Positions 4,053 to 4,624 of a DNA stretch of 5,652 nt are shown here, in pieces (the stretch's first letter is position 1; each line of letters begins with the position of its first letter). The translations under genes were made by a program, and so were the position numbers. The notes below the pieces were generated by a model. It ran no database searches, was not told where the DNA came from, and saw only the letters and a program-made list of their open reading frames with translations. The DNA is taken from IMG/VR virus record IMGVR_UViG_2529292833_000006. The stretch is one strand, 5' to 3'. This stretch comes from a virus. Lineage: Duplodnaviria > Heunggongvirae > Uroviricota > Caudoviricetes.

Positions 4053-4624
4053 ATGGCCATAAAAGGTCTTGAGCAGGCCGTTGAAAACCTCAGCCGTATC
4101 AGCAACGGCGGTGCCGGTGCCGCCGCAATGGCCATTAACCGCGTTGCTCATCCGCGATATCGCAGTCGCGTCACAGGTTGCCCGTGAGACAAAGGTACGC
4201 CGGAAACTGGTAAAGGAAAGGGCCAGGCTGAAAAGGGCCACGGTCAAAAATCCGCAGGCCAGAATCAGGGTTAACCGGGGGGATTTGCCCGTAATCAGGC
4301 TGGGTAACGCGCGGGTTGTCCTTTCCCGCCGCAGCGTCGTAAAAAGGGGCAGCGTTCACCCTGAAAGGTGGCGGCAGCGTGCTTGTGGTGGGAAACCGTC
4401 GTATTCCCGGCGCGTTTATTCAGCAACTGAAAAATGGCCGGTGGCATGTCATGCAGCGTGTGGCCGGGAAAAACCGTTACCCCATTGATGTGGTGAAAAT
4501 CCCGATGGCGGTGCCGCTGACCACGGCGTTTAAACAAAATATTGAGCGGATACGGCGTGAACGTCTTCCGAAAGAGCTGGGCTATGCGCTGCAGCATCAA
4601 CTGAGGATGGTAATAAAGCGATGA
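4053..4624 (+). pseudogene. Z: Tail completion protein Z (lambda gpZ-like) broken by multiple apparent single-base deletions
   Basis: ATG at 4053 (MAIKGLEQAVENLSRIS...) with a G-rich RBS at 4044-4048. The protein is spread over three frames: frame 3 to about 4148 (..AMAINRVA), frame 2 at 4148-4168 (SSAISQS), frame 1 at 4168-4332 (ASQVARETKVRRKLVKERARLKRATVKNPQARIRVNRGDLPVIRLGNARVVLSRR), frame 3 at 4335-4358 (RRKKGQRS), frame 2 at 4361-4624 (LKGGGSVLVVGNRRIPGAFIQQLKNGRWHV...LRMVIKR). The span of 572 nt is not a multiple of 3. Confidence 0.75.

Follow-up and report, generated by a model that had tools for sequence, protein, structure and literature searches.

In phage lambda, gene Z, which encodes the tail completion protein gpZ (PF06763), lies between FII and U. 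A broken form of this gene is on record in E. coli ATCC 8739, whose Z (ECOLC_RS11245; NC_010468.1, 2294221-2294797) is flagged by RefSeq as frameshifted and carries one lesion only, a 2-bp deletion. A precedent of a different kind is given by the collapse errors known from prophages, IS elements and rRNA operons in draft assemblies. Errors of this type are found on short contigs of multi-copy DNA, they are unique to one record and located at differences between the copies, and in the reads they are recognized by mixed alleles and elevated coverage.

In this work we have compared with these systems a lambdoid Z gene from the whole of contig AQDY01000028.1, a stretch of 5652 bp which we call the window. 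The contig belongs to the draft assembly GCA_000355395.2 of E. coli 2756500, a CS7-expressing ETEC isolate (PMC6301781). In the literature we found no mention of the contig accession, and the strain appears there only as a CS7 ETEC isolate, without sequencing details. The window Z occupies the same FII-Z-U position as lambda Z and yields the full Pfam profile once it is restored, but in contrast to lambda Z it is deposited with 7 bases missing in 6 places, and for that reason it does not form a single Z ORF. One of its lesions is identical to the 2-bp deletion of ATCC 8739; whereas that gene has no other lesion, the window adds five in Z which are common to no other record. With the known collapse errors the window has in common that it is a short contig of multi-copy DNA with record-unique lesions, here at sites which are polymorphic among related prophages; those errors have a signature at the read level, and the window was judged from its sequence.

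Gene Z in its lambdoid block

The window contains only lambdoid head and tail genes, arranged as in lambda: the 3' end of B, C/Nu3, D, E, FI, FII, Z, U and the 5' part of V, with the two contig ends falling within B and V. FII extends over positions 3688-4041, Z over 4053-4624 on the plus strand, where it aligns to lambda Z 7977-8555, and the tail terminator gene U over 4621-5016 on the same strand. U is intact, as stated in the original prediction made from the bare sequence, and the exact U protein, like that of FII, is encoded on at least 1000 contigs. Outside Z, C (488-1414) and Nu3 (1411-1818) are separated by a 1-bp deletion after 1385, and E is present in two pieces (2215-3141 and 2943-3239) with a 1-bp deletion after 2932. 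In genomes which possess this block, the median number of places at which it occurs is 2. The closest complete genome is that of ETEC O114:H49 strain 90-9280 from Bangladesh, which has two full copies. Between positions 4000 and 4700 the nucleotide identity of the window to lambda and to thousands of E. coli prophages is 97.5-98.9% (gaps counted as differences), and the 701 window bases always pair with 708 reference bases.

Some departures from lambda are of another nature. At the 3' end of C/Nu3 the window has 12 bases more than lambda (1797-1808), and its D gene (within 1473-2165) is a divergent allele in which about 37 of every 300 bp differ from lambda-type D; it is identical to the allele in 90-9280 copy 1 and close to that of phage Perceval. 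The extra bases and the divergent D are the result of natural module exchange and are not lesions. Exchange between prophages can also be seen in the corresponding block of ETEC-2264, for which one crossover joining the two prophage copies of 90-9280 accounts with zero mismatches; it is a clean natural recombinant of co-resident or co-circulating prophages of Bangladeshi ETEC.

Could the gene at 4053-4624 still be called Z? Three-frame translation reproduced the frame jumps which had been noted earlier: the coding path passes from frame 3 to 2, 1, 3 and 2, and there are stops in every frame that is abandoned. The deposited Z thus contains no uninterrupted ORF of about 192 codons and is annotated as two fragments of 44 and 81 aa. 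An alignment of lambda Z to 4053-4624, which had been proposed as a check, needed frame changes, and the profile PF06763 (Minor_tail_Z) was split, its positions 1-32, 39-109 and 111-190 being matched on three different frames by the fragments 4053-4184, 4069-4485 and 4379-4621. When the 7 bases were put back, a Z ORF of 192 codons was obtained, whose product differs from Z of strain 90-9280 in 1 residue and from lambda gpZ in 2 of 192. The restored protein scores 273.5 bits against PF06763, for which the cut-off is 23.9, and covers profile positions 1-190. Its match to this profile and its synteny, between FII and U in the lambda order, mark it as an ordinary Z of the lambda type.

The missing bases and the sites where they fall

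We aligned window positions 4040-4640 base by base with lambda (J02459) and with E. coli prophages, intact ones among them; the relatives used were lambda, E. coli 53, ATCC 8739, 90-9280 and strain 205. Polymorphism was read from a multiple alignment with 18 distinct references (the panel). Relative to lambda and the intact prophages, the 7 bases were lost from Z in 6 events, all of them described here on the plus strand. The comparison with orthologous prophages, also proposed beforehand, showed that the intact E. coli copies have the bases which are missing here. Lesion 1 (4103-4104) is the only one of 2 bases: relatives read AAAA or AGAA, the window AA, and the panel is polymorphic for A and G. 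The remaining five lesions each lack a single base. Lesion 2 (4115-4116), which changes CCTGG to CCGG, affects the third position of a Pro codon, CCT or CCC (10 T and 8 C in the panel), lesion 3 (4147-4148) the third position of an Ala codon, GCG or GCT (7 G, 11 T), lesion 4 (4167-4168) that of a Ser codon, TCT or TCG (10 T, 8 G), and lesion 5 (4333-4334) that of an Arg codon, AGG or AGA (12 G, 5 A). Lesion 6 (4358-4359) is at a first codon position, TCC or GCC (16 T, 1 G). Four of the five single-base lesions in Z are therefore synonymous third positions and common biallelic SNPs. Lesions 1 and 2 together remove 3 bases, which puts Z back in frame 12 nt further on, with SKTAVPGA replaced by SNGGAGA.

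Three further events, each of one base and on the same strand, lie elsewhere in the window. The one in C/Nu3 (1385-1386) falls in a CGT/CAT codon, where the two prophage copies of 90-9280 have G (copy 1) and A (copy 2). The second is in the intergenic D-E region (2208-2209), where a T-run upstream of E is shortened from T8 to T7 (13 T and 2 A in the panel), and the third is in E (2932-2933), in a TCC/TCT codon (11 C, 4 T). The original prediction had placed about four single-base deletions in Z, near 4148, 4167, 4333 and 4359. All four were recovered, as alignment gaps after 4147, 4167, 4333/4334 and 4358, but the number was too low, the lesions at 4103 and 4115 having been missed. Its view that Z holds the densest cluster of lesions proved right: six of the nine deletion events of the window are inside 256 bp, against an expectation of about 0.4, and the cluster is thus real.

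Every one of the nine events includes a column that is polymorphic in the panel. Such columns make up 13.3% of the total, a share which rises to 19% if homopolymer-equivalent placement is allowed and to 34% if the rule is made very generous; nine hits in nine would thus arise by chance with P of about 1e-8 to 6e-5. The haplotypes give a similar picture. The window follows a haplotype like that of 90-9280 copy 1 (c1) up to 4393 and one like that of strain C8 from 4519, and lesions 1-4 are exactly the sites which separate the c1-like from the C8-like haplotype; at lesions 5 and 6 and at 2932 the C8 haplotype has no difference. Six of the nine lesions lie on the 5.2% of columns at which c1, c2 and C8, all haplotypes from other strains, differ (P = 1.5e-6). 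The two copies of 90-9280 are identical to each other at all six Z lesion sites, and an origin of the lesions from disagreeing copies would therefore require a third, C8-like allele in 2756500. It also counts against such an origin that the majority of inter-copy SNPs in the window gave no deletion.

The window can also be described as a mosaic on a much finer scale. Copies 1 and 2 of 90-9280 together with C8, Ec53 or lambda account for all but 2 of its bases, and a fit with two or three haplotypes uses about 39 switches, some of them only 2-11 bp apart. The best match to a natural haplotype in more than 3000 genomes was 99.1% for positions 1-1384 and 98.9% for 2934-4102. We did not count this mosaicism as proof of a chimeric contig, because natural haplotypes are equally mosaic: in a leave-one-out control natural lambdoid haplotypes cost 18-54, and the window 31. 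The contig ends were likewise uninformative as repeat boundaries, as the 90-9280 copies stay similar beyond both of them.

How widespread are these lesions? The 1-bp deletions were absent from 5,426 complete E. coli genomes, although in hundreds of these the flanking 150 bp show no other difference, and the deletions at 1385 and at 2932 were likewise found in no complete E. coli genome. There were no matches in IMG/VR to three lesion-spanning strings and none in JGI metagenomes to a lesion-spanning string. In GTDB representatives a pattern permitting either form had 36 matches, all of them to the intact form of 40 nt. In a set of about 15 billion proteins, the truncated products of C, E and Z each come from a single contig, that of E being EMW68774.1. 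The exception is the 2-bp loss, AAAA to AA at the equivalent of 4103/4104, which occurs among 3152 genomes only in the ATCC 8739 lineage (five records); its presence in the window may be due to inheritance, recurrence or coincidence.

Origin of the lesions

What could remove single bases at just these sites? The missing bases lie on one-letter differences between related prophage copies and the contig stands alone in a draft assembly, which makes an error of assembly the most likely cause. In our opinion it is highly probable that the Z lesions are a consensus or assembly error arising where prophage copies disagree, and we infer that copies were merged. Related strains have two or more slightly different prophage copies, and the reads from such copies would have been combined in one multiple alignment. 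At a one-letter difference no allele would then have prevailed, the consensus would emit no base and an apparent 1-bp deletion would be left at the SNP. From what is generally known of consensus callers, a loss of bases at conflicting columns seems plausible; our literature search found no paper on the exact consensus behaviour. Six sites of this kind would lie in the 5' half of the gene, shortly before the contig changes from the c1-type to the C8-type haplotype, and it would be due to this neighbouring switch that Z looks riddled and U does not. The window is indeed a short contig of repeated DNA from an unfinished assembly. A single dropped ambiguous column does not readily account for the loss of 2 bp at 4103, which matches the genuine ATCC 8739 allele and may be either a real allele of one copy or a part of the artefact. 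The true Z of 2756500 is probably a normal 192-codon gene; at most, it may have one 2-bp deletion, the one also known from ATCC 8739.

An alternative is that Z is a genuine pseudogene of a defective prophage, which under relaxed selection collected small deletions in Z as well as in C and E, perhaps beginning from the AA deletion. Z genes with frameshifts do occur in finished genomes, namely those of ATCC 8739 (five records) and strain 205, the ATCC 8739 lesion is exactly common to the window, and bacterial mutation is biased towards deletions. We nevertheless consider this origin rather unlikely. Neutral decay should hit positions independently of polymorphism and offers no reason why nine of nine lesions are on population SNPs. 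A dead Z would free the entire morphogenesis block, yet two thirds of the lesions (6/9) are crowded into 256 bp. Substitutions should exceed indels several-fold, whereas the private changes in the 5652 bp are 8 1-bp deletions, 4 substitutions and no insertions, and between 4201 and 4500 Z differs by 0-1 substitution from the nearest common intact alleles; even where the frame has shifted, a perfect Z can still be read. Finally, such lesions should be inherited by relatives, but no relative in any collection has even one of the 1-bp lesions and the AA deletion alone has a counterpart, in the unrelated ATCC 8739. The original prediction had suggested relaxed selection on Z, and the placement on SNP sites, the concentration in 256 bp, the excess of deletions and the near-identical Z alleles all speak against it. 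Its second suggestion, a local patch of low-quality sequencing, fared better and is close to the reading we support: the draft contig and the record-unique lesions agree with it, and the SNP placement points to a consensus error in multi-copy DNA. Purely random read errors on a thinly covered contig, such as homopolymer miscalls in pyrosequencing or ion-semiconductor data with no merging of copies, seem to us a distinctly poor explanation. They would suit a short draft contig, and some lesions can be written as the contraction of a homopolymer (T8 to T7, A4 to A2 or, depending on the allele, CC, GG or TT to one base). Errors of this kind should, however, also produce insertions and prefer the longest runs, and the A5, G6 and G4 runs in Z are intact; the lesions at 4115, 4358 and 1385 are outside any run, and the coincidence with SNP sites is not predicted.

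The bases might also have been lost in the cell. Recombination of co-resident diverged prophages could create heteroduplex mismatches which are misprocessed so that the mismatched base is removed, a course of events to which we assign only a very slight chance. It would leave 1-bp deletions exactly at inter-copy SNPs, clustered beside the crossover in Z. Is it possible that the frame changes are used by the phage? The frameshifts in Z might be programmed, or lesions 1 and 2 (-2 and -1, at 4103 and 4115) might be a selected compensatory pair, as the frame regained after them could suggest, and nearby in lambda the genes G/GT have a programmed -1 frameshift. We find such recoding scarcely credible, since the pair is followed by four more uncompensated frame changes with stops in each abandoned frame, Z is one ORF in thousands of relatives, and no lesion is conserved anywhere, as a true frameshift site with its slippery sequence should be. 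A methylation-related long-read error was considered for 4115, where the change from CCTGG to CCGG affects a Dcm site. The site is a common CCT/CCC SNP like those of the other lesions, so that one explanation covers all of them, and the Dcm idea was dropped. An error in the consensus of merged prophage copies is the reading we prefer, and we would class the lesions as an artefact of assembly and not as a real feature.

Related records and the meaning of the cluster

Several other records deserve mention. In E. coli strain 205 (NZ_CM132944.1) Z is annotated by RefSeq as a pseudogene; it has a frameshift in which G6 became G5, at the window equivalent of about 4283-4288, which may have arisen by true mutation or stem from a sequencing error in the homopolymer. 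Compared with the window and the panel references, the block of Shigella flexneri SFBU0723 (CP182557.1) has many small indels, among them ones near 2909, 3346, 4692, 5224, 5491 and 5571, and these may represent either genuine decay or errors of long reads. About 28 species-representative genomes of unrelated taxa, among them Arthrobacter, Shewanella, Pseudomonas, Neobacillus, Bradyrhizobium and several MAGs, contain short or low-coverage contigs which, over the part they have in common with the window, are 0-3 bases from lambda J02459. This looks like contamination with lambda control DNA. The record MW057783.1, "Campylobacter phage CJLB-4" (48,361 bp), aligns to the window as lambda does, with equal identity and at nearly the same coordinates, and it uses lambda gene names; it therefore appears to be lambda and not a Campylobacter phage.

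If the lesions in Z are indeed a consensus error, there is nothing biological to explain and the value of the finding is practical. When prophage genes on a short draft contig show clustered frameshifts, these should then not be counted as pseudogenization or as evidence for relaxed selection. An artefact of this type can be tested for with reference sequences only, without the reads, by asking whether the gaps lie on known SNP sites and whether deletions outnumber substitutions. As for the gene itself, the AA deletion, the one lesion with independent support, shows through ATCC 8739 that genuine inactivation of Z in resident prophages is possible, but this is ordinary prophage decay.
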